Counted from the first letter of the stretch, positions 10,356 through 49,183 are shown. The stretch: 64,000 nucleotides of DNA from Candidatus Multivoradales bacterium (GCA_965248925.1 CBDFLE010000005.1:384001-448000), one strand, 5' to 3'. Program-made: numbers and translations. The notes: generated by a model not told the origin, from the letters alone.

Positions 10356-10525
10356 CCCGGTCGGAACCTTGCGGCCTTGGTGTCCTGTTACGAGGCGGAG
10401 GTTCTCGAGGTCACGCCGGGCGAGATTGCGGACGCCTGCGAACGACTCGGAAGCAGCTCGGAAGTCGACGGCTTTCGAGTCCAGGTCGGGCATCGGCTGC
10501 TCATCGAGATCTCGATCATAAGACT
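10356..10525 (-). pseudogene. Internal fragment of an AlbA_2/RecG-C-like ATP-binding regulator
   Basis: DEQPMPDLDSKAVDFRAASESF...LENLRLVTGHQGRKVPT resembles the mid-region of this family; both ends are missing. Confidence 0.5.
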
Positions 10526-30663: not shown

Positions 30664-30843
30664 ATCTCGGGTCGCTCCTCAGGCCGACTTTATCGCTTGC
30701 GACGCCTGGGGGGTTGCCGTGGTAGCCCTAGGGAAGGAACTCAAGGGCCTGGTTTACGTACAGACCCTTGTCCCAGCCATGACCCACTGAGGAGCGCTCG
30801 GTTCGAGATCCGCTTGACCAGCCGCTCGCGAAAGTCGAGAACG

Positions 30844-33000
30844 ATGCTTCGAAGCTATCCAACACTCCATACCCTGATCTGCTGCTGGCTGCTCCTCTCC
30901 GGGGCGGCAGCGGCTGATAGTCCCACGCCGCCTAGCATTGCCGCCGTGGCGATCGACACCGAGCTGACCCCGGATGGGGTGCTCGACGAAGCTGCTTGGC
31001 AGCGCGCGCCGGCGAGTTCGGGCTTTGTCCAGCGGCGGCCAGCGGAGGGGGCGGTGGCGACTGAGGACACCGAGTTTCGGGTGCTGTTTAGCTCGACGAC
31101 TCTTTATGTCGGCATTCGGGCCTTTGATCGACAGCCGGAAGCGCTGATTGCCCGCGAGCTACGCCGCGACGGGGCCTTGTTTCGCGACGATGGCCTGGTG
31201 GTGCTGCTCGATACTTTTCACGACCAACGCAACTCCTTCTTCTTCGAGACCAACCCGCTGGGTGCGCGCACCGATTCGCTGATCACCGATGAAGGCAACG
31301 ACGTCAATTTCGAGTGGGATGGAGTGTGGCAGGTCGGCACCCAAGTCGATAGCCAAGGCTGGACCGCCGAGTATGCGATTCCATTCTCCACCTTGCGCTA
31401 CAACCCCGGCGACACCACCTGGGGCCTGCAAATCCGACGTTACATTCGGCACAAGAATGAGATCACTTTCTGGGCGCCCTTGCTGCTCGATGCCAACATT
31501 TTTCGGGTTTCGCTCTTTGGCGACCTGACCGACCTGCGGCCACCCAAACGCGGTCTCGGCCTCGGGATCGAGCCTTTCGTGACCGCTAATATCAGCGAGT
31601 TCGAGGGCGCGCCGCGGGACGAAGAGAGCGATGTTGGGCTCGACATAAAATGGGGGCTAACTCGAAATCTCACCCTCGATCTGACTTACAACACTGACTT
31701 CGCCGAAGTCGAAGCCGACGCTTTGCAAGTCAACTTGACCCGCTTTCCCCTCTTCTTTCCGGAGAAGCGAGACTTCTTTCTCGAGAATGCCGGGGTCTTC
31801 AAATTCGGTCCAGGAGCGCCCCAGCTGGGACTGTTTTTTTCGCGCCGAATCGGCATCGATGGCGGTCGCCAAGTGCCTCTCGACTTGGGGGCACGCTTGA
31901 CTGGGCGGGTCGGTCCTTGGACCCTGGGCCTGCTTGAGGTGCTGACTGAGGATCTTGCCGCCGAAGATGGCGCGGAGGCGGTGCCGAAGACCAGCTGGTC
32001 GGTGGCGCGGATCAAGCGCGATCTCGGCCAGCGCTCGAACGTCGGGGCGATGCTCACCCAGCGCGATCCCAGTGGCGGCGATAGCGACCGCAGTTGGGGT
32101 ATCGATCTCAATCTCAACCCCACCAAACGCCTCAAGCTGACCGCTTTTGCCGCCGGCACTGAGGGCAACGAAACCCAGGATACCGCCGCCGGCGCCAGTG
32201 CTCGCTGGCAGAGTTCGGTGTGGGAAGTGAGCGCCGCTGCCAAGGAGATCGGTGACGACTTCGCACCCGCCATGGGTTTTGTATCCCGCCGCGGCGTGCG
32301 GCGTTACGACACCTATGTCAAGTGGGCGCCGCGGACCGCGGGAAAAGGTGCGATCGAGAGCTTTTTTTTCGACTTGAGAACCAACATGTTCACCGACTTG
32401 GAGGGTCGGATCGAAAGCCGGACCATCGACTATAACCCCTTTGGCATTCGCTGGAAGCAGGGGCATTTCTTTACCTTCTTCGGCAATCTTCGCCGCGAAC
32501 GCCTGACCGAGCCGTTCGAGATTTCCGACGGCGTGTTGATCGCGCCGGGGGACTATCACTTCGAGGATTTCGGCGCCTTCTTCTCCTCCGACGGCAGCCG
32601 CCCGCTGTCGATCGAAACCTCTGCTTTTGGCGGTAGCTTCTACGACGGCGACCGCCTGTCAGGACAGTTCACCCTGCTATTCCGGCCCAGCAAGCATCTA
32701 TTCTCCGAGACCAGCTGGTCCTACAACGACATTGATTTGCCGGCCGGTGAGTTTTCAACCGAGTTGATCCGTCAGCGCATCTCGGTGCCGATCAACCCTG
32801 ATCTGCAGATCAACGCCTTCGTCCAATACAGTGATGCCCAGGACCTCACCGCCCTCAATCTGCGCCTGCGTTGGATCTACCGCCCCGGCTCCGACCTCTT
32901 CGTGGTCTACAACCAGACCTGGGATGCTCCCGGCCTCAGCCAGCTGAGCCCCCGCGATCGGCAGCTGTCCGTCAAGTGGACCTATCTGCTGCAGCGCTGA
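30844..33000 (+). CDS. CBM9-like/DUF5916 outer-membrane beta-barrel protein
   Basis: Signal peptide; DGVLDEAAW, WTAEYAIPF, NTDFAEVEAD, FFPEKRDFFLE, FFSRRIG; C-terminal KWTYL. Confidence 0.85.
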   Translation: MLRSYPTLHTLICCWLLLSGAAAADSPTPPSIAAVAIDTELTPDGVLDEAAWQRAPASSGFVQRRPAEGAVATEDTEFRVLFSSTTLYVGIRAFDRQPEALIARELRRDGALFRDDGLVVLLDTFHDQRNSFFFETNPLGARTDSLITDEGNDVNFEWDGVWQVGTQVDSQGWTAEYAIPFSTLRYNPGDTTWGLQIRRYIRHKNEITFWAPLLLDANIFRVSLFGDLTDLRPPKRGLGLGIEPFVTANISEFEGAPRDEESDVGLDIKWGLTRNLTLDLTYNTDFAEVEADALQVNLTRFPLFFPEKRDFFLENAGVFKFGPGAPQLGLFFSRRIGIDGGRQVPLDLGARLTGRVGPWTLGLLEVLTEDLAAEDGAEAVPKTSWSVARIKRDLGQRSNVGAMLTQRDPSGGDSDRSWGIDLNLNPTKRLKLTAFAAGTEGNETQDTAAGASARWQSSVWEVSAAAKEIGDDFAPAMGFVSRRGVRRYDTYVKWAPRTAGKGAIESFFFDLRTNMFTDLEGRIESRTIDYNPFGIRWKQGHFFTFFGNLRRERLTEPFEISDGVLIAPGDYHFEDFGAFFSSDGSRPLSIETSAFGGSFYDGDRLSGQFTLLFRPSKHLFSETSWSYNDIDLPAGEFSTELIRQRISVPINPDLQINAFVQYSDAQDLTALNLRLRWIYRPGSDLFVVYNQTWDAPGLSQLSPRDRQLSVKWTYLLQR

Positions 33001-33136: not shown

Positions 33137-34474
33137 ATGACTCTAGAGACTGCCGATTCCGCTAGCTTCTTCTGGCGCCTGCTGCTGATCGCATCCTTGA
33201 TTGCCGCCATCGTGTCGCTTTGGACGACCGGTGCCGGCTTGAGTCGTTATGTGGCAATACCGCTGGCCTGGGCGCTGGCGGCGGCGGTGCAGCTGGGGCT
33301 GTTTGGCCTAGCATGGTTGATCGGTGTAGGCCATTCTCGCCAGCGGCTGTGGATCTCCTTACTCTACTTCGCGACCATGCTGTTCTCAGTCACCTTCAGC
33401 TACGTCACCTTGCAGAGCGAGCTCACCGAGCGTATCCGGCCGGCCGAGGCTCAGCGGCGGTTGCTCGATGTCAGCCGCCAAGTGGTATCCGATCTCGCGC
33501 ACCAGCTCACCGCCGCCAGCCAGCAGCGCGACGATCTGGAGCTGCGTCTGGCGGGCTGGCTTGAGATGGAGCGCGGCAATGGCTGGGCAACCAGCACCTG
33601 CGAGGCCGAGGACCACTGTTATCTGGCGGGCGTCTGCCAGCGTATTCGCCAGCGCATCGGCGTCTGGGAGGGCTCTTCCGGCCGGACCTACCGCGAAGGC
33701 CCCGGTGAAGCGCTGATCTACGGCGCCCTCGAAGCTGAGCTTGGTAGCCTGCGCCAGCTCGGCGAGCGGCTGGCTGAGTATCGCCTCGGAGTGGCCACCG
33801 AGGACGGTGTGTTGGCGGCGGGGATCGACAATTGGCAGCGCTTGGCGCGGCTCGATCTGCTCCTCGGTCGCTTGCCGAGCGCCGACCTCGAGGCGGTCAC
33901 TTGCCAGGCTGCGGCGCTCCCCAGCCTGCCGTCCTACAGCGACCACGCCCGCGACGCCGCGTCCAGTGACGAGCAACCGGTCTATGCCTGGCTCGACCTG
34001 CAACGCTTGTTGAGCTCTGCCGAGCCCCTCGGTCGCGAGGACTATCCGACGCTCTTCGCTCTGGCGCTGGCTCTGTTCATCGACCTATTCGTGCTCGCCG
34101 TGGCCCTCGGTGCTTCCGAGGTCGGCCGTCGGGGTCGCGGGGTGGCCATGTTGGGTGCCGCACCGAAAGGCTGGCAAGAAGCAGTCGTGGACGATGTCGA
34201 CGGCTGGCTTGGGGCTTCCCTGGAGCGTGGAGAGCAGGGCAGCGACAGTCGCCAGCAGCTGCTCAGCAGCTTGCTCGACGCGATCTCATTCGACCGCCGT
34301 GGTCAGGCACACTTGCTACCCGAGGATCCGTCCCAACACCGCTTCGCCCGGCTACTCGTCGGCTGCCGGGCGGCGACGCCGCGGGCCTTCATACGCCTCG
34401 GTCGGGTGGGCCAGCGCTTCGACCTAGAAGAATGGGTGCTGCCCGCTCTGGCCCAGGCGGCCCAGCGCAGCTGA
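33137..34474 (+). CDS. Hypothetical membrane protein (3 N-terminal TMs, helical domain, further TM)
   Basis: 445-aa ORF with GAGGAG RBS and host-like codon usage. Confidence 0.7.
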   Translation: MTLETADSASFFWRLLLIASLIAAIVSLWTTGAGLSRYVAIPLAWALAAAVQLGLFGLAWLIGVGHSRQRLWISLLYFATMLFSVTFSYVTLQSELTERIRPAEAQRRLLDVSRQVVSDLAHQLTAASQQRDDLELRLAGWLEMERGNGWATSTCEAEDHCYLAGVCQRIRQRIGVWEGSSGRTYREGPGEALIYGALEAELGSLRQLGERLAEYRLGVATEDGVLAAGIDNWQRLARLDLLLGRLPSADLEAVTCQAAALPSLPSYSDHARDAASSDEQPVYAWLDLQRLLSSAEPLGREDYPTLFALALALFIDLFVLAVALGASEVGRRGRGVAMLGAAPKGWQEAVVDDVDGWLGASLERGEQGSDSRQQLLSSLLDAISFDRRGQAHLLPEDPSQHRFARLLVGCRAATPRAFIRLGRVGQRFDLEEWVLPALAQAAQRS

Positions 34475-34541: not shown

Positions 34542-34587
34542 TTGACAACTGGCCCCCGACTGGCTATGGTCACTTGGCCATGACTAT
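34542..34587 (+). promoter_or_regulatory. vapBC promoter and operator
   Basis: TTGACA-17bp-TATGGT; imperfect inverted repeat ATGGTCA..TGACTAT overlapping the -10 and start codon. Confidence 0.65.
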
Positions 34588-34897
34588 GAAAATCCCAAAC
34601 AAAGAGACCCTCAAAAATTCGCCGCCTGACTCGCGCCACACGGTTGCGACTGGTTGTAACGACGCCTATCCCCCTCTCGATCCACGGATAGCGGCCGGTG
34701 AGTTCAAAGCCAAGTGCTTGAGCATGATCGACGAGGTTGCCGAGACCGGCGCCGCCTACGTCATCACCAAGCGCGGCAAACCGATGGCGCGGCTGGTGCC
34801 CCTGGCTGAGCAGGAGCCCGCGGACCTGCTGGGCAGTGTGCTGTTCGAGGACGATCTTGTGTCGCCGATCGGTGAGCCCTGGGATGCAGAACAGTGA
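34580..34897 (+). CDS. Phd/YefM-family antitoxin
   Basis: IAAGEFKAKCLSMIDEVAETGAAYVITKRGKPMARL; exact start uncertain. Confidence 0.88.
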   Translation: MTMKIPNKETLKNSPPDSRHTVATGCNDAYPPLDPRIAAGEFKAKCLSMIDEVAETGAAYVITKRGKPMARLVPLAEQEPADLLGSVLFEDDLVSPIGEPWDAEQ

Positions 34898-35280
34898 TTG
34901 TGCTCGACACCCACGCCTGGATCTGGTGGACCTCGGCCCCCGACCGGCTGTCGAATGGCGCCCGCCGGGCGATTGATGAGGCTACCGCTCTCGGGGTGTC
35001 GGTGATCAGCTGCTGGGAGGTGGCCATGCTGGTCACCAAAGGGCGCTTGGGACTCGATCGTGGGGTTGATCTGTGGGTGCGCCAAGCCTTGGCCCGGCCG
35101 CGGGTGCGGCTGCTCGAGATTACGCCCAAGATCGCCGTTCAAGCCGCGGAGTTGAAAGGCAAAATCCCGGGCGACCCGGCCGATCGATTGATCACCGCCA
35201 CCTCGCTGGCGCGGCGCGCAGCGCTGATCACCCGCGACCGGATCTTGACAGACTACTCAGAGTTGAGGACGGTTTGGTAA
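34894..35280 (+). CDS. vapC: VapC PIN-domain toxin
   Basis: IVLDTHAWIW, SVISCWEV, GDPADRLITAT, LITRD. Confidence 0.9.
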   Translation: MIVLDTHAWIWWTSAPDRLSNGARRAIDEATALGVSVISCWEVAMLVTKGRLGLDRGVDLWVRQALARPRVRLLEITPKIAVQAAELKGKIPGDPADRLITATSLARRAALITRDRILTDYSELRTVW

Positions 35281-35356: not shown

Positions 35357-38300
35357 TCAGAACAGCCGGGCGATGGCTGTCAGCACCTTTTCTGGGTTCA
35401 GCCGGTCCGGTAGATCTTCGGCTTCGTAGAGGGCGTAACCTTCAACGAAGCGAAACCGTTCGAGTGCTTCGGGATCACCCATGACGTAGCCCTCGGAGGT
35501 CCAGGCCAGGTGATGGCCTTTGCGGTCCGACCAGAGGTGAGCCACCGGCTGGAGCAGCCTATCTTCGGCCGAGAACTCGGAAACAGCATACAGGCTCAAC
35601 ACACCATCTCTCCGGCCAATCACTAGTGCCCGACTGCTGGGGAGCCACGCTAGCGACGAAGGCGTGCTATCGAGCAGAGCGTCGGCCACCCTTCGGCCGG
35701 TCGTCGGGTTCCATAGTTTAACGGTTTTGTCAGAGGAGGCAGAAGCGAGGGTCTTGCCGTCCGGGCTGAAAGCAACGGCGCGGACTGGCCGTTTGTGTTG
35801 TTCGAGTGAGTGGATGAGCTTTGCGCGGCTTGGGTTCCATAGTTTGACGGTGTTGTCATGGGATGCAGAAGCGAGGGTCTTGCCGTCCGGGCTGAAAGCA
35901 ACGGCGGTGACCCAACCGTTGTGTTGTTCGAGTGAGTGGATGAGCTTTGCGCGGCTTGGGTTCCATAGTTTGACGGTGTTGTCATGGGATGCAGAAGCGA
36001 GGGTCTTGCCGTCCGGGCTGAAAGCAACGGCGCGGACCCAATCGTTGTGTTGTTCGAGTGAGCGGATGAGCTTTGCGCGGCTTGGGTTCCATAGTTTAAC
36101 GGTGTTGTCATGGGATGCAGAAGCGAGGGTCTTGCCGTCCGGGCTGAAAGCAACGGCGGTGACCCAACCGTTGTGTTGTTCGAGTGAGTGGATGAGCTTT
36201 GCGCGGTTTGGGTTCCATAGTTTGACGGTGTTGTCATGGGAGGCAGAAGCGAGGGTCTTGCCGTCCGGGCTGAAAGCAACGGCGGTGACTGGCCGTTTGT
36301 GTTGTTCGAGTGAGTGGATGAGCTTTGCGCGGCTTGGGTTCCATAGTTTGACGGTGTTGTCATGGGATGCAGAAGCGAGGGTCTTGCCGTCCGGGCTGAA
36401 AGCAACGGCGGTGACCCAACCGTTGTGTTGTTCGAGTGAGTGGATGAGCTTTGCGCGGCTTGGGTTCCATAGTTTGACGGTGTTGTCATTGGATGCAGAA
36501 GCGAGGGTCTTACCGTCCGGGCTGAAAGCAACGGCGGTGACCCAACCGTTGTGTTGTTCGAGTGAGCGGATGAGCTTTGCGCGGCTTGGGTTCCATAGTT
36601 TAACGGTTTTGTCATCGGAGGCTGAAGCGAGGGTTTTGCCGTCCGGGCTGAAAGCAACGGCGGTGACTGGCCGTTTGTGTTGTTCGAGTGAGTGGATGAG
36701 CTTTGCGCGACTTGGGTTCCATAGTCTAACGGTTTTGTCATTGGATGCAGAAGCGAGGGTCTTGCCGTCCGGGCTGAAAGCAACGGCGGTGACCCAACCG
36801 TTGTGTTGTTCGAGTGAGTGGATGAGCTTTGCGAGGCTTGGGTTCCATAGTTTGACGGTGTTGTCGTGGGATGCAGAAGCGAGGGTCTTGCCGTCCGGGC
36901 TGAAAGCAACGGCGGTGACTGGCCGTTTGTGTTGTTCGAGTGAGTGGATGAGCTTTGCGCGGCTTGGGTTCCATAGTTTGACGGTGTTGTCATGGGATGC
37001 AGAAGCGAGGGTCTTGCCGTCCGGGCTGAAAGCAACGGCGGTGACTGGCCGTTTGTGTTGTTCGAGTGAGTGGATGAGCTTTGCGCGGCTTGGGTTCCAT
37101 AGTTTGACGGTGTTGTCATTGGAGGCTGAAGCGAGGGTCTTTCCGTCCGGGCTGAATGCAAGTGACTTAACGGAGCCGCGATGTGCGGTGAGGCTGCTGA
37201 GCAGTGTGCCGGCGAGGGTATCCCAGAGGAGGATGGAACCCTCGGCTCCTGCGCTCGCCAGGATAGGCTCCTGAGGGTGGTAGGCCAATGCAAGGACTCT
37301 TCCTTGGTGGCCGTCTTTCAGCAGCGGCCGAAGGCCGCCAAAATGGCCGGTGCGCGCGGCCGGTAGGCCGCGCGCACCGAGTAGGGCGGTACCCAAGGTG
37401 CGCCTGGGCTCAAATCGCGCATCGCTCAGATCCGCTCCGGAGAACCGAGCGAAGCCAAGGTCGGCGGCCCGCAGGTCCGCACGCCGCAGATCCGCATGCC
37501 GCAGATCGGCGTGATCGAGACTTGCTCCGCCGAGGTTGGCGTCCGAGAGGTCGGCGCCTCGCAGGTCGGCCGAACTCAGGTCCGCCGAAGAAAGATTGGC
37601 ATCTAGCTTGGCACCTTGTAGCTGCGCCTGGCGCAAGTTGGCCTGCTTGAGGGATGCTTGAATCAAGTAGGCACCGCGCAGATCGGCGCCCTGCAAATCG
37701 CCTTGCTCCAGTCGCATTGGCCTGGAACCCATCGCTGCTTGGTGGAGGGCCGCCATCTCCCGTTGCACCGCCGCGAGATCGATCTCCTCTTCAGCCGCCC
37801 GGTCGCGAGGAGTGTCCGCTGGCAGGGCGCGGTCGCGGGCCAAAAAGTAGAGCAAGCGCAGGGCGTTCTCGCTGACTCGTTGCCGGTAGTCGCCCGCCAG
37901 CACCGCGCCGGCGAGTTTGGGGATGTTCTCGGCCTCCGGCCAACGCAAGAGGAAGAGCGCCACCTCGCGGGTCAGGGGTTTCAGATCGAGCACCGTGGCA
38001 TCGTCCTGCGCCAAGCCCTCCCGCACGGTGACCGCGACGAAATACTCCAGAAAAGAACGATGGATGAAGCGGTAATAGCCGCGGCTGTCGCGATGCAGGA
38101 AGAGGGCGGTGCGCACCTCGTAGTCGACCCTTTCCTTGTCCAGGTAGGAGAGTTCGCGTTTGACCCGATAGAAGTCGAGCGCCTTTTCGGCCAGCTCCTC
38201 GTAGTGAACTTCCTGCCGCGAGGCGTCCCACAGCATGCGCGCCAGGTAGTGGACCAGGGCGACCTTATGCTCTCGGGTGAGGGTCAGGCGCAGGTCATTA

Positions 38301-40498
38301 TGCTCGAACCACTTCTCGCAGTAGGCCTCGTAGAGGTCGGCGATCGATAGCGGAGCACCCTGGGCTCGCTCGACCGCCACCGCCAACGATTTGACGATCA
38401 GCTTGAGCAGGAAAGGTCGCTTGGCGAGATCGTCGAGATTGTAGGCGGCCTGGATCGTCCCCTTCAGCTCTTGCCAGTCGCCTGGCGGCGGTACCGCCTT
38501 TTGCAAGTAGACGTCGATCTGCGCCTGCTCGAACTCGCGCAGGTAGGCGATCTGGGCGCCGGGGCGTTCCCGCAAGATCTCGTAGAGGGCGGTAGCGCCA
38601 GCGGTGGAGCGCTCGGCGCCCGCTACTCCCAGCTGCTGAACCTCCTCGGGCTGGTCGCGAAAGTAGTGGGTCCGGCAGGTGAGAATCACTTTCGCCTCAC
38701 CCTCGACGGCGCGCAACATCTGGCGCAGGTTCTCGGCGTAGTGGCCGGGCTCGGTGTAAGCAATGGTCTCGTCGAAACCATCGAAGATCAGCACCAAATG
38801 GCCGGCGCGGTTCAAGAACAGCATTGCTTGTGGGTTGAACGACCGGGTAGAGAGTCGCTGGAAGTGATGGTTCAGCAGATTCTCGAGAGTCACCGTAGTC
38901 GAGCCGCTCTCGCGCAGGTCGATTAGCACCGGCGCTCGCTGGTCAGGATCCTGCTGGTGAGCCAGTGCCAGCAAACAGGCCAGGCGCTGGCAGAAGCTGC
39001 TCTTGCCGACCCCGAAGTCACCCAGCAGGGTCAAGACGCCGGAGGCCGGTTCCTCAAGCCAGGCGAGGACGCTCTCGGTCAGCCCGCGTGGCTTGACCAC
39101 CTCCCCTGGCCTGATATCTCGCTGCCAGACCGCCTCCTGCTCGACATAGAGCCGTTCGAGGTCGGTGCCCTGGAAATCGCGGATAGCTTGGTCGAGAGTG
39201 GGGGAGAGGTCGACCAGTGAACGCCGTAGCTCCTTGAAGCTCTTGAGCTCGACGAACAGCTCTTCAGCTACCGCACGTGCGTTGTTGGCGAACCCCTCAC
39301 GTGCGACCAAGATGGCTTGGTAGCGGCGCTTATCGTGCCGGCTGGCGGTCTCCACCTTGCGCGAGAATTTCACGACGTCGTCGATTCCCACCTTGCGCTT
39401 AGTGTCTTTGCACTCCACTAGAGCGTAGGTGGTGATCGGTCCCTGCAACTCCAAGCGCACGTCGAACTGCCGATCCAAGGTCTTGTCGTCCACCTCCGCC
39501 CGGTAGCCGAGCAGGCGGAACAGTTCGGCGACTTTTTCCTCGAAGCTCTTGGCGCGCTGAAGAATCTCTCGCCGGTCGTCCGCGGTGAGGCCGGGACGAA
39601 GCTGCCTTTCATCGCGGTCTTCATCGGCCTCAGCTAAGACTGAGGCACGCTCGCGCGTGAGCATGTCGAGGAGCGGTTGGTATTGGTCTCGGAGGTCTTC
39701 AGCGCTGCCCCCATCCAGGCTGGGTATCGCATCGGTCAGCAGCAGCGGAGGGTGCAGTGGTAGCTGCAGATTGGGTCCGAGGCCCGCCGCTCTCAGCTGG
39801 TCCAACTTGCTGTCCTTCAGTGCTTCGAGGTGCTTGTCTCCCGCCACCTCGGGAACCATGTTGGCCAGCAGGAATACCTTGATCTCGCCGTGCTTGCGGC
39901 GCTGCGCCTTGATCGCCGCGTGAGCTTGCCTGATTCCCTGGAGGTTCTGCTCATTGAGGTTGAAGACGATCACTACCAGGTCGGGGAGGATCAGCGTACT
40001 GATTGCGCCAAGGTCGGTAAGACCGGTTCGGGCGTCGATCAGCAAGTACTCGTAGCCGAGGTCGTCCAACAGGTGCTGCGCGATGCGCAGGAAGAAGGCG
40101 CCGCCCATCTCCCCATCTGCCAACAAGGGTTGCCAATCGATGCCGGCAAAGCGCTCGCGGTATCCCTGGTCGAAGGGGCAGGGGAGTAGAAAGTCGAGCC
40201 TGCCCCGGTTCTTGGCCAAGCCATCGGGTAGGTCCAGGCTGACGATTGAGCTTTTCAGCAAATCGAAAGGCACTTCCCGGCATTTCCCTGCCACGAACGC
40301 TTGGATAAGGTCTAGGGTGCCGCTCTCGAGCTTCTTGTCGACCTTGCGAAGTGCCGGGATACGCTGCATTCCGGGCGCTTCGAGATCCAGGTCCCAAACC
40401 AGGACTGAGTGGCCGCGTCCAGCCAGCTGAGCCGCCGTTTCGACCAGCGAGTGGGTGCGGCCCACGCCGCCTTTGAACGAGTAGAAAGTGACGATCAT
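35357..40498 (-). CDS. NLR-like STAND protein: ParA/MinD-like ATPase + Mrr-like restriction endonuclease + NACHT + pentapeptide + WD40
   Basis: FYSFKGGVGRT and LIDARTG; FEEKV..FDV..VECK; GDFGVGKS, IFDGFDE, LTCR, FIHRSFLEYF; ADLxx repeats; 14 WD40 blades. Confidence 0.9.
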   Translation of the reverse strand: MIVTFYSFKGGVGRTHSLVETAAQLAGRGHSVLVWDLDLEAPGMQRIPALRKVDKKLESGTLDLIQAFVAGKCREVPFDLLKSSIVSLDLPDGLAKNRGRLDFLLPCPFDQGYRERFAGIDWQPLLADGEMGGAFFLRIAQHLLDDLGYEYLLIDARTGLTDLGAISTLILPDLVVIVFNLNEQNLQGIRQAHAAIKAQRRKHGEIKVFLLANMVPEVAGDKHLEALKDSKLDQLRAAGLGPNLQLPLHPPLLLTDAIPSLDGGSAEDLRDQYQPLLDMLTRERASVLAEADEDRDERQLRPGLTADDRREILQRAKSFEEKVAELFRLLGYRAEVDDKTLDRQFDVRLELQGPITTYALVECKDTKRKVGIDDVVKFSRKVETASRHDKRRYQAILVAREGFANNARAVAEELFVELKSFKELRRSLVDLSPTLDQAIRDFQGTDLERLYVEQEAVWQRDIRPGEVVKPRGLTESVLAWLEEPASGVLTLLGDFGVGKSSFCQRLACLLALAHQQDPDQRAPVLIDLRESGSTTVTLENLLNHHFQRLSTRSFNPQAMLFLNRAGHLVLIFDGFDETIAYTEPGHYAENLRQMLRAVEGEAKVILTCRTHYFRDQPEEVQQLGVAGAERSTAGATALYEILRERPGAQIAYLREFEQAQIDVYLQKAVPPPGDWQELKGTIQAAYNLDDLAKRPFLLKLIVKSLAVAVERAQGAPLSIADLYEAYCEKWFEHNDLRLTLTREHKVALVHYLARMLWDASRQEVHYEELAEKALDFYRVKRELSYLDKERVDYEVRTALFLHRDSRGYYRFIHRSFLEYFVAVTVREGLAQDDATVLDLKPLTREVALFLLRWPEAENIPKLAGAVLAGDYRQRVSENALRLLYFLARDRALPADTPRDRAAEEEIDLAAVQREMAALHQAAMGSRPMRLEQGDLQGADLRGAYLIQASLKQANLRQAQLQGAKLDANLSSADLSSADLRGADLSDANLGGASLDHADLRHADLRRADLRAADLGFARFSGADLSDARFEPRRTLGTALLGARGLPAARTGHFGGLRPLLKDGHQGRVLALAYHPQEPILASAGAEGSILLWDTLAGTLLSSLTAHRGSVKSLAFSPDGKTLASASNDNTVKLWNPSRAKLIHSLEQHKRPVTAVAFSPDGKTLASASHDNTVKLWNPSRAKLIHSLEQHKRPVTAVAFSPDGKTLASASHDNTVKLWNPSLAKLIHSLEQHNGWVTAVAFSPDGKTLASASNDKTVRLWNPSRAKLIHSLEQHKRPVTAVAFSPDGKTLASASDDKTVKLWNPSRAKLIRSLEQHNGWVTAVAFSPDGKTLASASNDNTVKLWNPSRAKLIHSLEQHNGWVTAVAFSPDGKTLASASHDNTVKLWNPSRAKLIHSLEQHKRPVTAVAFSPDGKTLASASHDNTVKLWNPNRAKLIHSLEQHNGWVTAVAFSPDGKTLASASHDNTVKLWNPSRAKLIRSLEQHNDWVRAVAFSPDGKTLASASHDNTVKLWNPSRAKLIHSLEQHNGWVTAVAFSPDGKTLASASHDNTVKLWNPSRAKLIHSLEQHKRPVRAVAFSPDGKTLASASSDKTVKLWNPTTGRRVADALLDSTPSSLAWLPSSRALVIGRRDGVLSLYAVSEFSAEDRLLQPVAHLWSDRKGHHLAWTSEGYVMGDPEALERFRFVEGYALYEAEDLPDRLNPEKVLTAIARLF
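35706..37158 (-). repeat. Intragenic tandem array of near-identical 126-bp WD40 units (12 copies of the core)
   Basis: GGGCTGAA recurs every 126 bp from 35763 to 37149; unit QHxxxVxAVAFSPDGKTLASASxDxTVKLWNPSRAKLIHSLE. Confidence 0.97.
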
Positions 40499-41349
40499 GC
40501 GGCTTTGGCGGTGTTAGACCAAGCCTGGCTCAGCGGCTTTTCAGGTGACAGGTTGCGAAGACGGTCATCATCGTCTTTGGCTTCGGCTGCTGCTACCACC
40601 CGCCGGTCGGAATTGCTCGGCGAGGCGGCCGTGTCGCGACTACAGATCGCGGTGGCCAATTGACTCGCCACCCAATCAGAGGGTGCGCCAAGCACTCGCA
40701 GTTCGCTTGCGACTTGTTGAGAGTTGTTGAGAGCCTTCGGCGAGTGCAGTAATTCCACCAAGTGCTCGACCCACGAAGGGCGGAAGCGCTCTTCGGCGAT
40801 CTCTCGCCCCTCCGGCCCCAATTCAATCTCCACCGTCCGGCCGACTCGTCTGCGAAGAATCAAATCGCCTTCTTCCAGCGTCCGCAGCAGATGGGAGAAG
40901 TTGGAGTCGGAGATACCCACTCGTTTCCGCAGGAGGGCGCGTTGGACAGGCCCATCTGCCGCCACCAGAATGCTCAGAATCTTCTCTCCGTGGCCAGAGG
41001 TGCCGCGCAGAAGGGTGTCGGTGAAGACCGGGTCAGAGCGCCGAGCTCCTTCGGTCAACAATTCGCAGTAGCCGTGCCAGGCGCCGTGGATGACGGGATC
41101 CAGGCCGCGAAGGACTTCTCCGACTTTGGAACTCAGCAGGCGAGCGAGCTGAAGAGCCTCGTCGAGTGCTTGGGCCCGAGTACCGACCTTGAGGAGCCAA
41201 AGCGCGCGCCCGATCAGCAGGCCATCGAGGGCATCGACCCGCTCACGGCGAGGATCGGCGACGAGCGCTTCGAAATCACCTCGAACCTCTGCGAAAGGAA
41301 CCTCTTGTAGGCCCGTAAGATCCAAACTCGGAAGAGAAGAATTCTGCAT
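40495..41349 (-). CDS. Winged-HTH (MarR/ArsR-like) protein with extra helical domains
   Basis: KILSIL..LRKRVGISDSNFSHLLRTLEEGDLILRRRVGRTVEIELGPEG; ATGA overlap with the NLR gene. Confidence 0.75.
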   Translation of the reverse strand: MQNSSLPSLDLTGLQEVPFAEVRGDFEALVADPRRERVDALDGLLIGRALWLLKVGTRAQALDEALQLARLLSSKVGEVLRGLDPVIHGAWHGYCELLTEGARRSDPVFTDTLLRGTSGHGEKILSILVAADGPVQRALLRKRVGISDSNFSHLLRTLEEGDLILRRRVGRTVEIELGPEGREIAEERFRPSWVEHLVELLHSPKALNNSQQVASELRVLGAPSDWVASQLATAICSRDTAASPSNSDRRVVAAAEAKDDDDRLRNLSPEKPLSQAWSNTAKAA

Positions 41350-41412
41350 GGGTGCTCCAATCCGATGAGCAGCAGGGAGTAGCCGCTTGAAGAAAGCGGC
41401 AAGAGTCTGGTG

Positions 41413-41442
41413 ATAATACTTGAATCCACTTTCAATTGTCTA
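41413..41442 (-). promoter_or_regulatory. Putative promoter of the wHTH-NLR operon with operator palindrome
   Basis: Minus strand TAGACA-18bp-TATTAT; TTGAA-N6-TTCAA (41420-41435) in the spacer. Confidence 0.55.
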
Positions 41443-41463
41443 GGGGACGGCAAGCACAGTCGA

Positions 41464-42948
41464 TCAGCGCAAGGCGAAGTAGAGGTAGCGCTCGGTGCGT
41501 TCGACGGTGGTCGAGCTGCCCCGCGGGGCAGTCAAGTCGGTCACCTTCTCCCTCCGCCCGGAGGGTCGATGATCGACTTCGGACCGCCGCTCCGAGCCCA
41601 ACCGGATAAAGCTCGATTGGTCCTTGTGCGCTTGCTTGGCGCCCTTACCTGTGGTTGCGAACCAGCGGTTGCAGACGAAGCTGCTCACCCACCTCTGTCG
41701 CCAGTACTGGCGGGCGGCCTCTCGATGTGCGCTGGTTGTCGGGCTGAGCGATGGCACTAGAAAGATGGTGCCGTGGCATTCGTTGAGGGAATTTCGGAGC
41801 GTGTCGTGAAACAGATCCAAACAGATCAGCGGTACCAGGTTGCCCAGTGGCGATTCGAGCACTGAGATGACATGACCTACATCCACTCTCTCGCCGATCT
41901 GGCCATCTGGGCGTTGGTGGATGAAATTGGTGAGTTTGCGATGGCGGTGCTGCTCTCTGCCATCAGGTCCGAGCAGGATGGCTTCGTTGAGGTCATTGTC
42001 CTTCTCAGATTGTGAGCGGTGGCAAGTACCGGCTAGGATCAGAAGGGGCCAGTTTGAGGACGGCGTCCCGGCAAGGTCTCGTTGGATGGCCGTGAGGGTC
42101 GCCGGGGGTATGGAAAGTTCCGGCAGGATCAAGAAGGTCGCTTCAAGCTGGCGGGCGATGCCGATCGCCTCCAGGGCCTCGGCGGTCAGATCATCTTCTT
42201 GCTCGACCTCTGCTAGACGAATCGGGTTAAAGCCGCCAGGCTTGGGGAGCGCTTCGGTCAAGCGGGCTCCGGTGTAGGTGATGTCCGTAGTGAAGGGCCA
42301 GAGTAGTACTGAGAAGTGCTTTCTTTCCCATTCTCTGAGCATCCGCAGATGTAGCTCAGGTGTTGCCCAAGCTCGTCGCCCCTGGCTGCTTCGGCCTTCG
42401 ATCCGCCGACCACGTATAGGTGCCGTCGGCACCGCCATGTGGAATGAGCAGTAAGGAAAGAGTGACAGGGCGTCGCCCTGCTTGACTGAAGGCGGATTTG
42501 AGCGGGGATTTTGGAGCAAGTGATCTGAAATCCAGTTATTTCGCGTCTTGAGCAGGAACGGGGCACCCTCCACCCCGGGGAGTTCCAAGCTGCCAAGAGC
42601 GCGCGGATGCTCTTGCCTCAGGTCCCTGTCGAGCCTCTTGAGCCAGCGCAGGGCCAGCAGGTCGAACTGGGTAGAGTCGGTGAGCAGGCCGCGAAGCTCA
42701 GAACTTGCTTTGGCGGCGTGATTTGGACAAGGGCCAGGGTGGCCGTACGGCTTGAGGGAGTGGGGCTCTTCCTCGAGTTCCCGGAGGTGGTTTTCCGTCT
42801 CGGCAAGCCCGCTGCGGCCGAAGAAATCCCACAGCAAGATGAAGACGCTGGCCGCGGTTGGCCTGGGAAGTTGATCGATCTGTCGCAGGAGTATTCGGCG
42901 AAACATACCAGGCAGCTTGAAGAGAAGCATAAAGGCCAAGTAGGGCAA
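41464..42948 (-). CDS. Carbon-nitrogen hydrolase (nitrilase-like) domain protein with novel N-terminal region
   Basis: ILPELS (Glu), NEAILL, HRKL (Lys), LICLD (Cys), FVCN; start codon uncertain. Confidence 0.75.
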   Translation of the reverse strand: MPYLAFMLLFKLPGMFRRILLRQIDQLPRPTAASVFILLWDFFGRSGLAETENHLRELEEEPHSLKPYGHPGPCPNHAAKASSELRGLLTDSTQFDLLALRWLKRLDRDLRQEHPRALGSLELPGVEGAPFLLKTRNNWISDHLLQNPRSNPPSVKQGDALSLFPYCSFHMAVPTAPIRGRRIEGRSSQGRRAWATPELHLRMLREWERKHFSVLLWPFTTDITYTGARLTEALPKPGGFNPIRLAEVEQEDDLTAEALEAIGIARQLEATFLILPELSIPPATLTAIQRDLAGTPSSNWPLLILAGTCHRSQSEKDNDLNEAILLGPDGREQHRHRKLTNFIHQRPDGQIGERVDVGHVISVLESPLGNLVPLICLDLFHDTLRNSLNECHGTIFLVPSLSPTTSAHREAARQYWRQRWVSSFVCNRWFATTGKGAKQAHKDQSSFIRLGSERRSEVDHRPSGRREKVTDLTAPRGSSTTVERTERYLYFALR

Positions 42949-43052: not shown

Positions 43053-45590
<2,538 letters not shown>

Positions 45591-45766: not shown

Positions 45767-47383
45767 ATGACTCTCTTCGTCTCCAGACTGCCACCGCTGA
45801 GCCTGCTCTGTTTGACAGGCCTCGTGCTGGGGGTTTTCGCTGCCGGCTGGCCGATGGCCGAAGCGGCTACCGGCGAGGGGTCGTTCGTCGACTCTGTAGA
45901 GGTGCGAGTGGTGGAGATTCAGGTAGCCGTGCGGCAGCGGGGAAAGCACTTCGGTGGATTGGCAGCGGCGGATTTTCGCCTCCAAGTTGACCGTCGGCAG
46001 GTGGCGATCGATCACTTTGCCGAAGTCGGCTCCGGATCTGAGAGGGCTGCTGAGCCAGCGGCTACCGACTATTTGGTATTCATCGACGATTACTACTCGA
46101 TTAGCGCCGATCGCAACCGTCTATTGCGCAACCTGGCTGGTCAGTTAGCAGCTCTGGGTAAGGCTGACCGCTTGGCGTTGGTGGCTTTTGACGGTCGCAA
46201 GCTAGTGCAGCTGTGCCCTTGGAGTCGATCTCTGGATGAAATCCAGGCGGCCGTGGAGAGGGCCGTGCGGCGCCCCAGCTTTGGCCTGCGCCTAGTTGCC
46301 GAGCGGCGCCGTGTCGATGCCCTACGGGGCTCCTTGGACGGCGACCTGCGGCGTGATTTTGCCGGCATCGGTTTTCGCGGCAGCCGTCTTAGTCCCGGCA
46401 GCGGTCAGCTCGAGCCGTTTGGCACCGCGCCCCAGATGCGGCGGACGGTACGGGCCGCGGCAGCGGCTCTGCGGGCCTACGCGAGTCGCGACAATCGTCA
46501 AGTTCTGATGCTCTTGGCGGGTGCTTGGCCGGTGTGTGACGATCGTTTCGACGATGGCGGCTGCGACGGCGGTGGGCCGCTGGCTGATAGCTCGACCCTG
46601 CGCCGCTTGTTTGCCCCATTGATCGACGATGCCAACCGCCTGGGCTTCACCCTGTATCCGATCGACGCTGCCGGGATCGGGCGCAGTTTTGGCGGCGTGG
46701 GCGGTCGAGTCGGGGCGACGGTGGCGCGGCTGCGGGAGGATCGCTTTGAAGATGCTCTGGTCCAGCTGGCGGTTAAGACCGGCGGTCGTGCCTGGATCGA
46801 TGGCGGAGGGCTGCGCGCGCTGGAGCGCACCGCTGAGGATAGCCGCTCGTTCTACTCCCTGGGCTTCGTGCCCAACTGGCAAGCTGACGATAGCTCGCAC
46901 CGGCTTCGGGTCGAGGTTGCGGGGCGCGCTTTGCAAGTGCGGTCGCGGCGCGGCTTTTTCGACCTGTCGCGCTCCGCTGCTGTTGACCTGCGGGTCGAGC
47001 AGGCACAATTTTTTGAACGGCAAGTGGCCGGGGCGGGTGAGCTGGGAGTAGAACTTGGACCGCCGCGTGCGGCTGGCCGTGGGCGCCAGCTTCGCTCTCT
47101 GCTAGTACGTCTGCCGCTGGCGATGATCACTCTCACACCCGGCACAGCGGGTTGGAATGCCAAGCTTGAGCTGCGCGTTGCTGTCAGTAGCGCCAAGGGG
47201 CCACTCGACGATTTACCGATCACAACCCTCGAGGTGCGGCGTTCGGCGGCTCCCCGGCAAGGCGAGACCTGGGTCGGAGAAGGCGAGCTGCGCCTACCCC
47301 AAGACACTCGCCGGCTGTGGGTGACGGTTTTCGATCCGTTGTCCGGAGACCTTTTTTCTCGGCTGCTCGAAATCGTCCCCTAG
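45767..47383 (+). CDS. Secreted VWA-domain protein (acidobacterial type)
   Basis: Signal peptide; SVEVRVVEI..GLAAADF; LVAFD; LAVKTGG; YSLGF. Confidence 0.8.
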   Translation: MTLFVSRLPPLSLLCLTGLVLGVFAAGWPMAEAATGEGSFVDSVEVRVVEIQVAVRQRGKHFGGLAAADFRLQVDRRQVAIDHFAEVGSGSERAAEPAATDYLVFIDDYYSISADRNRLLRNLAGQLAALGKADRLALVAFDGRKLVQLCPWSRSLDEIQAAVERAVRRPSFGLRLVAERRRVDALRGSLDGDLRRDFAGIGFRGSRLSPGSGQLEPFGTAPQMRRTVRAAAAALRAYASRDNRQVLMLLAGAWPVCDDRFDDGGCDGGGPLADSSTLRRLFAPLIDDANRLGFTLYPIDAAGIGRSFGGVGGRVGATVARLREDRFEDALVQLAVKTGGRAWIDGGGLRALERTAEDSRSFYSLGFVPNWQADDSSHRLRVEVAGRALQVRSRRGFFDLSRSAAVDLRVEQAQFFERQVAGAGELGVELGPPRAAGRGRQLRSLLVRLPLAMITLTPGTAGWNAKLELRVAVSSAKGPLDDLPITTLEVRRSAAPRQGETWVGEGELRLPQDTRRLWVTVFDPLSGDLFSRLLEIVP

Positions 47384-47479: not shown

Positions 47480-49183
47480 ATGATGAGAAAGACTTCGCAC
47501 CAGACCTGGCACTTGTTTCGGCCGCTGTCGTTTCAGTCGCAATCGCTTCGAGGAGTGCGCTACTCCGTGCTCGGCATCCTGCTCTTGGCCACCGTCGGTT
47601 TGATCATGCCGGCCGCCGGCCAAGAGGAGTTGCCCGGAGTTTTCGGCGAGGTCGTCGACGTGCGGGTTGTCAACCTCGAAGTGGTGGTGACCGATAAGGA
47701 CGGAGTGCGGGTCGGTGGTTTAGGCGCGGACGATTTTCGCCTCACCGTGGACGGTGACGAAGTGACTGTCGAGTATTTCACCGAGGTGCTGGGCGGCTCG
47801 GCGGTAGACCAGGATCTGGCTGCCGGCGCGACCTTGCCGGCGTTGGCGCCGGGCGAGGACGTGGGCACCAGCTACTTGGTGTTCGTCGATGAATTCTTCA
47901 CTATTGCGCCGCATCGCAACCGGGTCTTCGATTCTCTGGTCGATCAGCTTCCCCTGTTGGGGCCTGAGGATCGCATGGCGGTGGTGGCATTCGACGGTAC
48001 CCGGTTGGAAATGTTGAGCAGTTGGAGCGGCTCGCAGTCAGCCCTCGAGCGGGTCTACCAAAAAGCCCGTGAGCGGCCCTCCCATGGCCTGAAACGGCGC
48101 GCCGAACGGCGGGTGTACGAGGCGAACCGCCGTTTTGGCGCCAGCAACGGGGGCTTGCCTGGGCTTTCTAGCCGTCTTGACATCGAGGAGCGGCAGCAGG
48201 TGGATCTGGTTCAGGGCCAAGTGCAGCGGGTGGTGTTGGCGGCGGCGGCGGCGCTGCGAGGGTTTGCCAACCCGCCGGGGCGCAAGGTCATGCTGTTGCT
48301 CTCTGGCGGCTGGCCTTACAACCCGGCAATGTGGGTCACCAGCGATCCGTCGCGGGCGATCTTCGCCGCCGGTTTCATCGACGGTCAGGACCTTTACCGG
48401 CCGTTGATCGAGACCGCCAATCGGCTCAGTTACACTCTCTATCCGGTCGATGTGCCGGGGGTGATCGAGTCGGGGATTAGCGCTGACAATCGTGGTCTCA
48501 CCGATCAGGTGGCGCAGGCCGATTTGCTGGTCGACCGTGAGCGGGAGGAGCAAACGGCGCTGATCCAGATCGCCACCAAAACGGGTGGACGGGCGCTGAT
48601 CAACGCCGCTAACAAGCATGCTCTTGAGATTGCCGTAGAAGATACTCGCAGCTACTATTGGCTCGGCTTCACCCCCAATTGGCGGGGCGACGACGAAGAG
48701 CATAAGGTGCGGGTGCGGCCGCGGCGCAAGGGTCTGAAAATGCGTTCGCGCAAGAGCTTCTCTGATCTGTCGCGCAATCGCGAGGTGACCATGATGGTCG
48801 AATCCTCGCTGCTATTTGGCAATCCTCCAAGCGCCTCGCCCCTGGGAGTCGAATTCAGCCGCGGCCGGCGTGCCGGCCACGGCAAGGCGTTGGTCTCGCT
48901 GAAAATCACCATCCCCCTGACAGAACTGACCTTCTTGCCCCAGGGAGATGAGTGGGTAGCTTCGACAGAGCTGCGCATCGCGGTGTTGGACGAGGACGGT
49001 TCGACCTCGGAAGTGCCAGTGATTCCGCTGCAAATGCGTGGCGCCGGACCGCCGGCGGCGGGAGCCACCGCGAGTTATTCGACGCAGGTGAGGATGCGCA
49101 AGAAACGCCACGACTTGGTGGTGTCGCTCTACGACGTTGCCTCGGGCAAGATTCTCTCTAATCGGTTGTCGGTGCATCCTTGA
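47480..49183 (+). CDS. Secreted VWA-domain protein (paralogue of the upstream gene)
   Basis: VDVRVVNLEVVVTDKDG, GRKVMLLLSGG, IATKTGG, YYWLGF. Confidence 0.85.
   Translation: MMRKTSHQTWHLFRPLSFQSQSLRGVRYSVLGILLLATVGLIMPAAGQEELPGVFGEVVDVRVVNLEVVVTDKDGVRVGGLGADDFRLTVDGDEVTVEYFTEVLGGSAVDQDLAAGATLPALAPGEDVGTSYLVFVDEFFTIAPHRNRVFDSLVDQLPLLGPEDRMAVVAFDGTRLEMLSSWSGSQSALERVYQKARERPSHGLKRRAERRVYEANRRFGASNGGLPGLSSRLDIEERQQVDLVQGQVQRVVLAAAAALRGFANPPGRKVMLLLSGGWPYNPAMWVTSDPSRAIFAAGFIDGQDLYRPLIETANRLSYTLYPVDVPGVIESGISADNRGLTDQVAQADLLVDREREEQTALIQIATKTGGRALINAANKHALEIAVEDTRSYYWLGFTPNWRGDDEEHKVRVRPRRKGLKMRSRKSFSDLSRNREVTMMVESSLLFGNPPSASPLGVEFSRGRRAGHGKALVSLKITIPLTELTFLPQGDEWVASTELRIAVLDEDGSTSEVPVIPLQMRGAGPPAAGATASYSTQVRMRKKRHDLVVSLYDVASGKILSNRLSVHP

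Follow-up and report, generated by a model that had tools for sequence, protein, structure and literature searches.

Three genes downstream of leuS

The window, a 64,000-nt stretch of a Candidatus Multivoradales genome (GCA_965248925.1, CBDFLE010000005.1:384001-448000), contains three co-oriented genes on the minus strand at 35357-42948, immediately 3´ of leuS. The trio encodes a nitrilase-superfamily protein (nit, 41464-42948, recognised by Pfam CN_hydrolase), a 284-aa winged helix-turn-helix (wHTH) protein (40495-41349, Pfam DUF7343, ArsR/SmtB fold) and a 1713-aa NLR protein (P0001, 35357-40498), which was delineated from its open reading frame (ORF) and its Pfam and NCBIfam domains. The stop codon of the wHTH gene and the start codon of the NLR gene share an ATGA (40495-40498), which was read directly in the sequence. 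An earlier description of this locus made from its sequence alone (the original prediction) had placed three co-oriented genes directly after leuS and noted this overlap; the features that it described at the NLR locus were confirmed, down to the domain coordinates. All positions are those of the window, and all features of the trio lie on the minus strand.

The NLR protein has a tripartite layout, with an N-terminal effector, an NTPase and a C-terminal repeat sensor. Its domains follow the order of a KGGVGR ParA-like domain, an Mrr-type PD-(D/E)xK nuclease, a NACHT, pentapeptide repeats and approximately 13 WD40 blades; a small domain closes the C-terminus. The first domain (residues 2-194; 39917-40495) matches NF047398, the NCBIfam model of the 'KGGVGR-motif variant AAA ATPase', with 118.7 bits against a cut-off of 90. 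The signature Lys in the KGGVGR motif (40457-40474) is kept, as are the DxD in DLD (40385-40393) and the Walker-B-like Asp in LLIDART (40025-40045). K9-G-G-V-G-R14, D36, D38 and D155 are unchanged in eight of eight sequences, and FYS[FY]KGGVGR[ST] was found in each of the seven further loci read. The P-loop Lys, however, is replaced by Arg (KGGVGR-T), so that the domain is not an ordinary ParA ATPase: it lacks the deviant Walker A KGGxGK[ST] with both lysines, and it falls far short of the cut-offs of the canonical ParA, MinD and partition models. The original prediction correctly recognised a KGGVGR ParA/MinD-like module; its mention of 'both Walker A lysines' does not hold, since the ParA-like domain has only the signature Lys.

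The second domain (residues 317-426; 39221-39550) is a predicted Mrr-type nuclease with the catalytic E...D...(E/Q)xK residues, which are located in FEE (E320; 39536-39544), FDV (D346; 39458-39466) and E362-C-K364 (39407-39415). It matches Pfam Mrr_cat at an E value of 8.2e-11 (42.5 bits, cut-off 21), and the PADLOC model of the Mrr-like nuclease ZorD at 3.4e-7 over residues 316-428. E320, D346, E362 and K364 are unchanged in eight of eight sequences, and ECKD is present in all five further NLRs that extend to the nuclease region. A PD-(D/E)XK nuclease with FEE..D..ECK residues had been proposed here; these residues are present and invariant. The NACHT core (residues 489-623; 38630-39034) matches Pfam NACHT at 1.7e-10 (41.4 bits, cut-off 26.7) and carries a Walker A, LGDFGVGKS (Lys499; 38999-39025), and a Walker B, LVLIFDGFD (38771-38803). 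It thereby shows both marks of a NACHT-clade STAND protein, namely a Walker A of the form GxxGxGK[ST] and an acidic Walker B, and GD[FY]G[VST]GK[ST] occurs in five of five further NLRs. A NACHT-associated helical region extends to approximately residue 900 and is followed by pentapeptide repeats (residues ~907-1045; 37364-37780; Pfam Pentapeptide, E 2.5e-25). The protein ends in a conserved domain of approximately 75 aa (residues 1641-1713; 35360-35578) that belongs to no known family; it has no match in Pfam, and its identity in six loci is 41-57% (tblastn). A sequence search of the PDB with the profile of the NLR N-terminus returned no match.

The WD40 propeller region (residues ~1060-1640; 35579-37320) was recognised as 13 stretches by Pfam WD40, and both the intact NACHT and the WD40 sensor of the original prediction are thus borne out. 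It contains a 126-bp tandem array with 11.6 copies and 93% matches (35706-37161; Tandem Repeats Finder; direct-repeat family D1). Eleven blades of 42 residues are nearly identical and differ mainly at unit positions 16-18 (KRP or NGW), 10, 20, 36 and 38. These variable positions are located just past the His of the GH-like dipeptide and around the Asp of the S-x-D-x-T turn; from the general structure of WD40 proteins, we take such residues to line the top, ligand-binding face of the propeller. Across the array (35500-37500), the GC content drops to 0.565-0.60 and the GC skew rises to 0.23-0.32, a shift that stems from the composition of the amplified 126-bp unit and does not indicate foreign DNA. 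The blades of the WD40 sensor are near-identical and were amplified recently as an array.

The nit ORF opens at a TTG (42948), but the start is most likely the ATG at 42930, which gives the 488-aa protein on record (P0005). Residues 1-115 (42586-42930) form a helical N-terminal domain that is extra relative to the nitrilase fold, and the fold itself occupies residues 116-488 (41467-42585), as delineated by Pfam, the AlphaFold model and Foldseek. Pfam CN_hydrolase matches at 4.1e-8 (33.3 bits, cut-off 23.2), and the AlphaFold model (26 relatives) has a pLDDT of 89.8 and a pTM of 0.92. Both the alpha-beta-beta-alpha fold and the Glu-Lys-Cys triad of the nitrilase superfamily are present. The triad (41821-42120) comprises Glu271 in ILPELSI (42118-42120), Lys332 in RHRKLTN (41935-41937) and Cys370 in PLICLDL (41821-41823). 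All 26 close relatives carry the triad unchanged, as do all 40 sequences of the wide alignment (A6). Foldseek placed Nit2 omega-amidases and nitrilases on top (probability 1.00, E 1.6e-10, TM relative to the target ~0.6), and a PDB profile search gave Nit2/Nit3 as the closest solved relatives, with a weak E value of 1.3e-4. The Nit2/Nit1 omega-amidase branch therefore provides the best matches in fold and sequence and has the E-K-C triad in common with nit, whereas nit is only 11-18% identical to it, carries the extra 115-residue helical domain and stands outside a metabolic context. The nearest clusters in Protein Atlas are unnamed 'hypothetical protein' sets, in which CN_hydrolase occurs on 11% of the members and MarR/HTH_24 on 12-15%; these are leads only.

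The wHTH protein is predicted to adopt a winged-helix fold of the ArsR/MarR type. Predicted N-terminal helices (residues 19-103) precede the winged helix (residues ~107-190; 40780-41031; Pfam, NCBIfam and Foldseek), and the C-terminal part consists of helices and a disordered tail. The sequence matches are marginal, with 27.7 bits for DUF7343 (E 2.5e-6), barely at the cut-off of 27.6, and 25.7 bits for an ArsR/SmtB subfamily of NCBIfam (E 7.5e-6), under the cut-off of 55. The structure model has a pLDDT of 78.4, and Foldseek matched it to HlyU, CzrA and SmtB (probability 1.00, E 6e-3 to 4e-2, TM relative to the target ~0.7). The recognition-helix region, SESHLSH.LRDLEEADL, is strongly conserved. 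A common ancestry of the helical N-terminal parts of nit and wHTH was considered and rejected (hhalign probability 0.4%). The predicted complex of nit and wHTH scored 0.34 (runs 0.34, 0.22 and 0.39), and the best of three controls scored 0.02; the runs agree in at least 68% of the contacts, and the partner pLDDT is at least 74. Of 80 solved complexes, 58 attained the mark used for such predictions, compared with 2 of 110 mismatched pairs; in the calibration at <=0.60, only 7 of the 80 solved complexes attained it, along with both mismatches.

The 114-bp spacer between nit and wHTH contains a candidate sigma-70-like promoter (41413-41442), in which TAGACA and TATTAT are separated by 18 nt and agree with the consensus at 10 of 12 positions. 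Since two matches to this pattern were found in 8.3 kb and 1.4 were expected, the site is a lead and not a finding. Inverted repeats were absent from the two spacers of the window, and no operator motif was common to the regions upstream of nit in 17 loci, where the best 9-mers occurred in only three. On the plus strand, a Phd/YefM-type antitoxin ORF (107 aa, E 2.3e-7), the end of which overlaps a PIN-domain (VapC-like) ORF (128 aa, E 3.4e-18), occupies 34574-35280 and converges on the 3´ end of the NLR gene.

Conservation and turnover of the unit

Close relatives of nit comprise 25 other proteins among 5.8 billion, and two collection scans yielded 18 loci. The wHTH gene is located directly after nit in 16 of them (tblastn); the two misses are L005, in which the contig ends 6 bases past the match, and L018, in which only a 65-residue match was obtained. 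The full KGGVGR-REase-NACHT-pentapeptide-WD40 gene (REase, restriction endonuclease) comes next in 7 of the 18 (L002, L003, L004, L006, L008, L011 and L014). Because several loci are near-duplicates (L001/L009, L003/L004, L012/L013 and L015/16/17), the independent lineages are fewer than 18. Both gene ends are readable in 12 loci: in eight of these, the wHTH stop shares 4 or 1 nt with the NLR start, and in the other four a gap of 4 to 27 nt separates them.

Two further samples extend this linkage over greater distances. The ParA-REase N-terminus (alignment A3) was detected at E <= 1e-50 in 5 of 401 genomes of the class of genome G401, and nit-like and wHTH genes lie directly upstream of the NLR gene in all five. 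Three of these NLRs are only ~30-37% identical to that of the window. The distant nit and wHTH genes are recognisable by profile comparison only (hhalign probabilities 98.3-98.8% and 88.9%, respectively), and the distant NLRs keep the ParA-like, Mrr_cat and NACHT parts with the motifs KGGVGR, ECKD and GDYGTGK[ST]. With the wide nit profile (A6) at E <= 1e-20, 15 places were found in 13 of 386 genomes of one acidobacterial class. Eight of these places also cover the nit N-terminal domain, and the other seven match the nitrilase part only, within longer ORFs. Full-length nit is thus present in 8 of the 386 genomes, and in each of the eight it is followed by wHTH and a FYS[FY]KGGVGR[ST] gene. REase and NACHT were seen in six of the eight; the contig ends in G1053, and G1061 has a 662-aa KGGVGR protein without NACHT. 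Four more nit/NLR pairs come from contigs of identical size in the protein database (8931, 45430, 352202 and 14885), which is weak evidence of pairing.

Wherever a full-length nit relative had sufficient downstream sequence to inspect, wHTH comes after it, and a FYS[FY]KGGVGR[ST] gene is third in most loci. In total, the trio is linked in the window and in approximately 12 further distinct loci, down to 20-35% protein identity, and it recurs in many soil bacteria. An arrangement that recurs in so many independent loci is far beyond chance. The nit, wHTH and NLR genes form one real, conserved and old unit, as the original prediction had proposed subject to nit and wHTH homologues proving to be linked to STAND genes. 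The genes around the unit differ by lineage, with leuS in the window and MOSC/DUF6503 in five others. leuS was rejected as a member of the unit, as it accompanies none of the 18 other loci. The upstream DUF6503/MOSC genes of L002, L003, L004, L005 and L007 were likewise rejected; they reflect local synteny of related genomes and are absent from the window.

Among 1.84 billion representatives, the wide nit profile recovered 590 clusters (50% identity) at E <= 1e-30, a number that rises to 2442 at E <= 1e-10. Most of the best 150 clusters match nearly the whole profile, and a few shorter fragments cover only its later part. Of the 119 other proteins listed, approximately 84 span at least 89% of NLR residues 1-480. 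Some of these relatives of the NLR N-terminus are assigned by their sources to Thermoanaerobaculia, Planctomycetes, Aminicenantes, Syntrophobacteraceae, Ramlibacter, Competibacteraceae, Rhodocyclaceae and Magnetococcales, and some NLR relatives are named 'KGGVGR-motif variant AAA ATPase' by NCBI. The spread is patchy, as the close nit profile matches only the window's own genome among the 401 of the phylum sample. The host genomes are large (5.6-10.6 Mb). Transfer between phyla was considered and rejected: the hits, coordinates included, were the same whether the phylum sample was centred on G401 or on the window's genome, which places both genomes in the same phylum.

The window's genome comprises ~8 Mb in six contigs and is 96.9% complete. 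It has no second cassette and no other nit or wHTH relatives; the only other match to the nit profile, a 569-aa CN-hydrolase ORF, covers the nitrilase part only and was rejected as a second copy. A second KGGVGR-domain protein is encoded at G000:C6:648488-651184 on the plus strand (NF047398, 131 bits; open frame of ~898 aa), and it matches only the ParA-like part of the NLR profile.

The sensor is the part that changes most. The WD40 region is the least conserved part of the NLR, with 31-43% identity compared with 50-63% for NACHT, and its tandem array ranges from 12 copies with 89% matches and in-frame stops in L002, through 10.2 copies with 81% in L049 and 1.9 copies with 77% in L004, to none in L006. 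Genes of the unit are also broken or replaced. The NLR of L002 is split by frame changes and stops, although an assembly error is also possible there. L007 keeps nit and wHTH, and its NLR is replaced by a 419-aa ORF (12291-13550) with weak similarity to peptidase family C25 (E 6e-5), next to a 78-aa leftover of the NLR C-terminal domain (13516-13752). Only the back half of the NLR is left in L009. In L048, conversely, the nit frame is changed and the region of the catalytic Lys and Cys is lost, whereas wHTH and NLR stay open. Such a pattern of breakage is typical of conflict genes. Since L007 and L009 retain NLR remnants, the three-gene form came first in these loci. In L012, which belongs to the NLR-less L012/L013 lineage, a 156-aa ORF resembling dual-specificity phosphatases (9944-10414, E 1.5e-6) lies directly after wHTH and is followed by an asparaginase gene.

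Relation to known systems and proposed function

No PADLOC model matches most of any trio protein. Seven families match at E <= 0.1, all partially and over single domains, among them HEAT-ARM_XIII (WD40 region), PDC-M28B (residues 3-63), ZorD (residues 316-428), PDC-S02, PDC-S28 and PtuA (E 0.06). None of the seven is an Avs family, and PADLOC-DB presumably contains models of both Avs and bNACHT. A literature search found no paper with the term KGGVGR and no description of the trio; figures and supplementary tables of 10.1101/2022.07.19.500537 and PMC7159879 that lay outside the searched text may already draw the clade or its gene neighbourhood. Because the PADLOC matches are limited to single domains and no paper describing the trio was found, the trio is not assigned to a named system, in agreement with the original prediction. 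We class the trio as a real, conserved and unnamed multigene form of NLR/STAND conflict systems, neither categorically new nor a member of any named defence system.

In Avs, reportedly described by Gao et al. in 2022, a nuclease precedes the STAND NTPase and a repeat sensor forms the C-terminal part, and ligand-driven oligomerisation reportedly activates the nuclease. The same three elements are present here (for context, the available part of PMC13581612). Compared with Avs, however, the NTPase is a NACHT, the sensor consists of WD40 and pentapeptide repeats rather than TPR-like repeats, and two obligate-looking partner genes are added. The original prediction also drew a parallel to the nitrilase of DRT1, which was not supported. 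DRT type 1 and nitrilase-fused reverse transcriptases (PADLOC RTasNitrilase and RT_UG5-nitrilase) have a nitrilase-superfamily domain in a defence setting in common with the trio, but the similarity is weak and generic (E 3.8e-4 and 0.025), nit is a separate family with its own helical N-terminal domain, and Pfam detected no reverse transcriptase domain in the three proteins.

The comparisons that follow refer to the accessible portions of the papers cited. Kibby et al. (10.1101/2022.07.19.500537) list REase as a DNase effector of bacterial NACHT proteins and tie the predicted Mrr-like REase effector of bNACHT25 to toxicity. They describe beta-propellers and pentapeptide repeats as 'antigen-receptor type' sensors, and their figure of NACHT architectures has CN-hydrolase, HTH, REase, pentapeptide and beta-propeller in its domain key. 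The order of an N-terminal Mrr-like REase, a central NACHT and a C-terminal sensor in proteins of the bNACHT25 type is found in the present NLR, which also fits their 'hybrid' class with a small extra C-terminal domain. In contrast to bNACHT25, the present NLR belongs to a conserved three-gene operon and carries an extra KGGVGR ParA-like domain ahead of the nuclease, and the nitrilase fold here resides in a protein of its own, which has an additional N-terminal domain; bacterial NACHT genes are reported there to occur only rarely in operons, which are poorly conserved.

Recently amplified WD40 propellers on STAND ATPases have been linked to bacterial innate immunity (10.1101/2022.03.13.484165). 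The near-identical 42-residue blades, the STAND ATPase and the operon-like setting of these WRAP-like propellers are all observed here, and relatives with frameshifts or in-frame stops, known for the WRAP type, have a counterpart in L002. In that work, the partner is another STAND protein, which bears TIR or caspase domains, whereas a nitrilase-fold enzyme and a wHTH protein take this position here, and the lineages differ as well, the present ones being Acidobacteriota and others. The ternary vWA-MoxR/VMAP systems (Kaur et al. 2020, PMC7159879) are similarly multi-gene, highly regulated, STAND-linked and found in large genomes. Their MinD/ParA-like domains are effector-side modules that are also fused to AP-ATPases, and FxSxx-COOH-system TPR proteins with a KGGVGR domain are among the distant NLR matches (P0134 and P0135). 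The trio differs in having no MoxR, vWA or VMAP and a NACHT as its NTPase, and nitrilase-fold and wHTH partners are not described in the accessible part of PMC7159879.

We read the three-gene operon as one NLR/STAND-type conflict system that most likely serves defence against phages or mobile elements, or non-self recognition of another kind, and ends in DNA cleavage, a reading that we hold with confidence about midway between doubt and conviction. The WD40 and pentapeptide part would act as the sensor, NACHT as the switch and the Mrr nuclease as the effector. By analogy with Avs and bNACHT25, a ligand bound to the sensor would release NACHT-driven oligomerisation, which would gather the nuclease domains and turn on DNA cleavage. 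The ParA-like domain probably binds nucleotide but does not turn it over, and it may serve as a dimerisation or nucleoid/DNA-tethering module. nit and wHTH would be a cognate pair that controls the NLR, with wHTH as a repressor or adaptor made in step with it and nit supplying or removing an amide-bond signal that licenses the system. That nit and wHTH cooperate with the NLR, be it as regulators, as adaptors or as a second effector, is suggested by their deep co-conservation, the translational coupling and the intact triad. The interpretation of the original prediction is partly supported: the module is real and conserved, whereas its immune role and the roles of its parts are still inferred, including the scheme in which WD40 ligand binding oligomerises NACHT and activates the nuclease and the ParA-like domain and nitrilase are thresholding or accessory parts.

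A more far-reaching version of this reading, which we consider rather unlikely, is that activation of the NLR needs enzymatic licensing. nit would then be an obligate catalytic partner that makes or removes an amide-bond mark on wHTH, on the NLR or on a small molecule read by the WD40/pentapeptide part; the ParA-like pseudo-ATPase and wHTH would hold the complex on the nucleoid, and the Mrr nuclease would fire only after both signals. If true, this licensing would be a new signalling chemistry for STAND/NLR immunity, and the 590 clusters of the nit family at E <= 1e-30 imply that it would be widespread.

Several observations weigh against a defence system built around the NLR. The system is present as a single copy in its own 8-Mb genome. 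The flanks of 10 loci (100 non-overlapping ORFs) are housekeeping by Pfam, with families such as ALAD, TilS, FtsH-type M41+AAA, Lnt, thiamine synthesis, glycosidases, a sigma-54 activator and a kinase. A defence-island context was not seen among these 100 ORFs, for which the PADLOC matches are generic (kinase model set, sigma-54 activator and AAA), with one ORF per family among the 25 of 65 matched families listed. The Phd/PIN pair is the only defence-like neighbour in the window. Neither tRNA genes nor flanking direct repeats were found at the locus. The 72,556 plasmid records contain no copies: nit is without any match, and the 19 records that match do so in the ParA-like part only, with none covering 80% of NLR residues 1-480. 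Viral contigs yielded pattern matches only and no relative of nit or of the NLR N-terminus. With regard to the parts, MinD/ParA-like domains in conflict systems are predicted to be inactive (Kaur et al. 2020, PMC7159879, available part). The Pfam family 'NACHT-associated inactive REase' (NA-iREase1) also matches the nuclease domain (E 5.3e-7), although the catalytic residues are present here. For a direct nit-wHTH contact, the complex prediction gives weak support.

The NACHT part, moreover, is not the constant element, as it is missing, truncated or replaced in L007, L009, L010, L054, L012/13 and L015-17. In L010, nit and wHTH accompany a 514-aa ParA-like protein with a canonical KGGVGKS, and in L054 they accompany a 662-aa KGGVGRS protein, both without REase or NACHT; no ParA or NLR gene was detected by tblastn beside nit and wHTH in L012/13 and L015-17. 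nit and wHTH are the constant pair and the ParA-like domain is nearly constant, whereas the REase-NACHT-sensor part is common but evolutionarily dispensable. The core thus comprises nit, wHTH and the ParA-like domain, which reverses the emphasis of the original prediction.

These observations also bear on a different history, in which nit, wHTH and a ParA-like KGGVGR protein are the core system and REase-NACHT-WD40 was added later and is dispensable. Such a core would act as a DNA-bound module in which wHTH is ParB-like or a repressor for the ParA-like pseudo-ATPase, and nit would provide the real catalytic output or input, for example as a toxin-like amidase checked by wHTH or as a detector for an amide metabolite. 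Only nit and wHTH recur in every readable locus (16 of 18) and in 8 of 8 wide-profile genomes, and both stay intact where the NLR was lost (L007 and L009). The forms without REase/NACHT (L010 and L054), the pair standing alone (L012/13 and L015-17), the large size of the wide nit family and, weakly, the predicted nit-wHTH contact (0.34 compared with 0.02 for the best control) point in the same direction. Conversely, the majority of the loci inspected have the ParA-like domain fused to REase-NACHT, as seen in 7 of the first 18 loci and in 6 of 8 wide-profile genomes (one more is undecidable at a contig end), and the remnants in L007 and L009 indicate that the three-gene form was the earlier one there. 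It is nit that is broken in L048, in which wHTH and NLR are open, and the stop/start overlap argues that wHTH works with the NLR. On balance, we regard a core-first origin as unlikely.

Alternatively, nit and wHTH could be a mere transcriptional switch for the NLR, in which wHTH represses, nit inactivates wHTH upon stress by amide cleavage or deamidation, and the NLR level rises. Repressor/hydrolase pairs of a comparable kind are CapH/CapP of CBASS and ImmR/ImmA, and some nitrilase-superfamily members, such as Nta1 and Lnt, act on protein N-termini. The ArsR/MarR repressor type of the wHTH domain, its strongly conserved recognition-helix region, the promoter-like site in the nit-wHTH spacer and the weakly supported contact would all suit such a switch. 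However, the regions upstream of nit share no operator motif (17 loci), the two spacers of the window contain no inverted repeat, and the known pairs use metalloproteases, not nitrilase folds. The pair also persists without an NLR to regulate (L012/13 and L015-17), and the extra helical domains on both proteins, together with the translational coupling, argue for a structural role and not only a transcriptional one. A pure switch is, in our view, quite improbable.

A chromosomal signalling or programmed-cell-death module of large-genome soil bacteria outside immunity (for example in kin recognition, in development or starvation, or in the response to DNA damage) would be consistent with the housekeeping neighbourhoods that differ between lineages, the lack of mobile-element marks in the plasmid, viral, tRNA and direct-repeat searches, the large genomes, the link of many such STAND systems to multicellular or complex bacteria and the near-identical WD40 blades with few variable sites in the fungal NACHT self/non-self proteins HET-E/D (PMC7159879 and 10.1101/2022.07.19.500537, available parts), but it is improbable in view of the patchy spread (1 of 401 genomes with the close nit profile in the phylum sample, 8 of 386 with the wide profile in the class sample), of the frequent pseudogenisation and sensor turnover, which suit an accessory gene driven by conflict more than a core gene of development, and of the intact nuclease effector, which implies a destructive output.

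The usual view of bacterial NLR-related proteins is that of sensors encoded by one gene together with their effector, whereas the present NLR is tied to two partner genes over a deep distance, one of which encodes an enzyme fold that has no known role in NLR signalling and has an intact catalytic triad. If the three genes work together as a conflict system, the operon would be a tractable, regulated, multi-component bacterial NLR. It would also give a first function to the family that combines the nitrilase fold with the helical domain (590 clusters at 50% identity) and to the KGGVGR ParA-like domain, which is widely annotated by NCBI. The locus offers clean point mutants for each step.

Other genes and features of the window

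leuS (43053-45590, minus strand) was identified by the Pfam leucyl-tRNA synthetase editing domain (E 2.4e-64). The stretch is present in four sequencing runs from one sample and one study, and no RNA run is listed among them. Three plus-strand ORFs of 445, 538 and 567 aa (33137-34474, 45767-47383 and 47480-49183, respectively) match no Pfam family at E <= 0.001. A SIR2-family protein of 284 aa (29809-30663, minus strand, E 9.3e-30) is probably a housekeeping deacetylase, although SIR2 also occurs in defence systems; its gene adjoins that of a 782-aa DUF5916/CBM9 protein (30652-33000).

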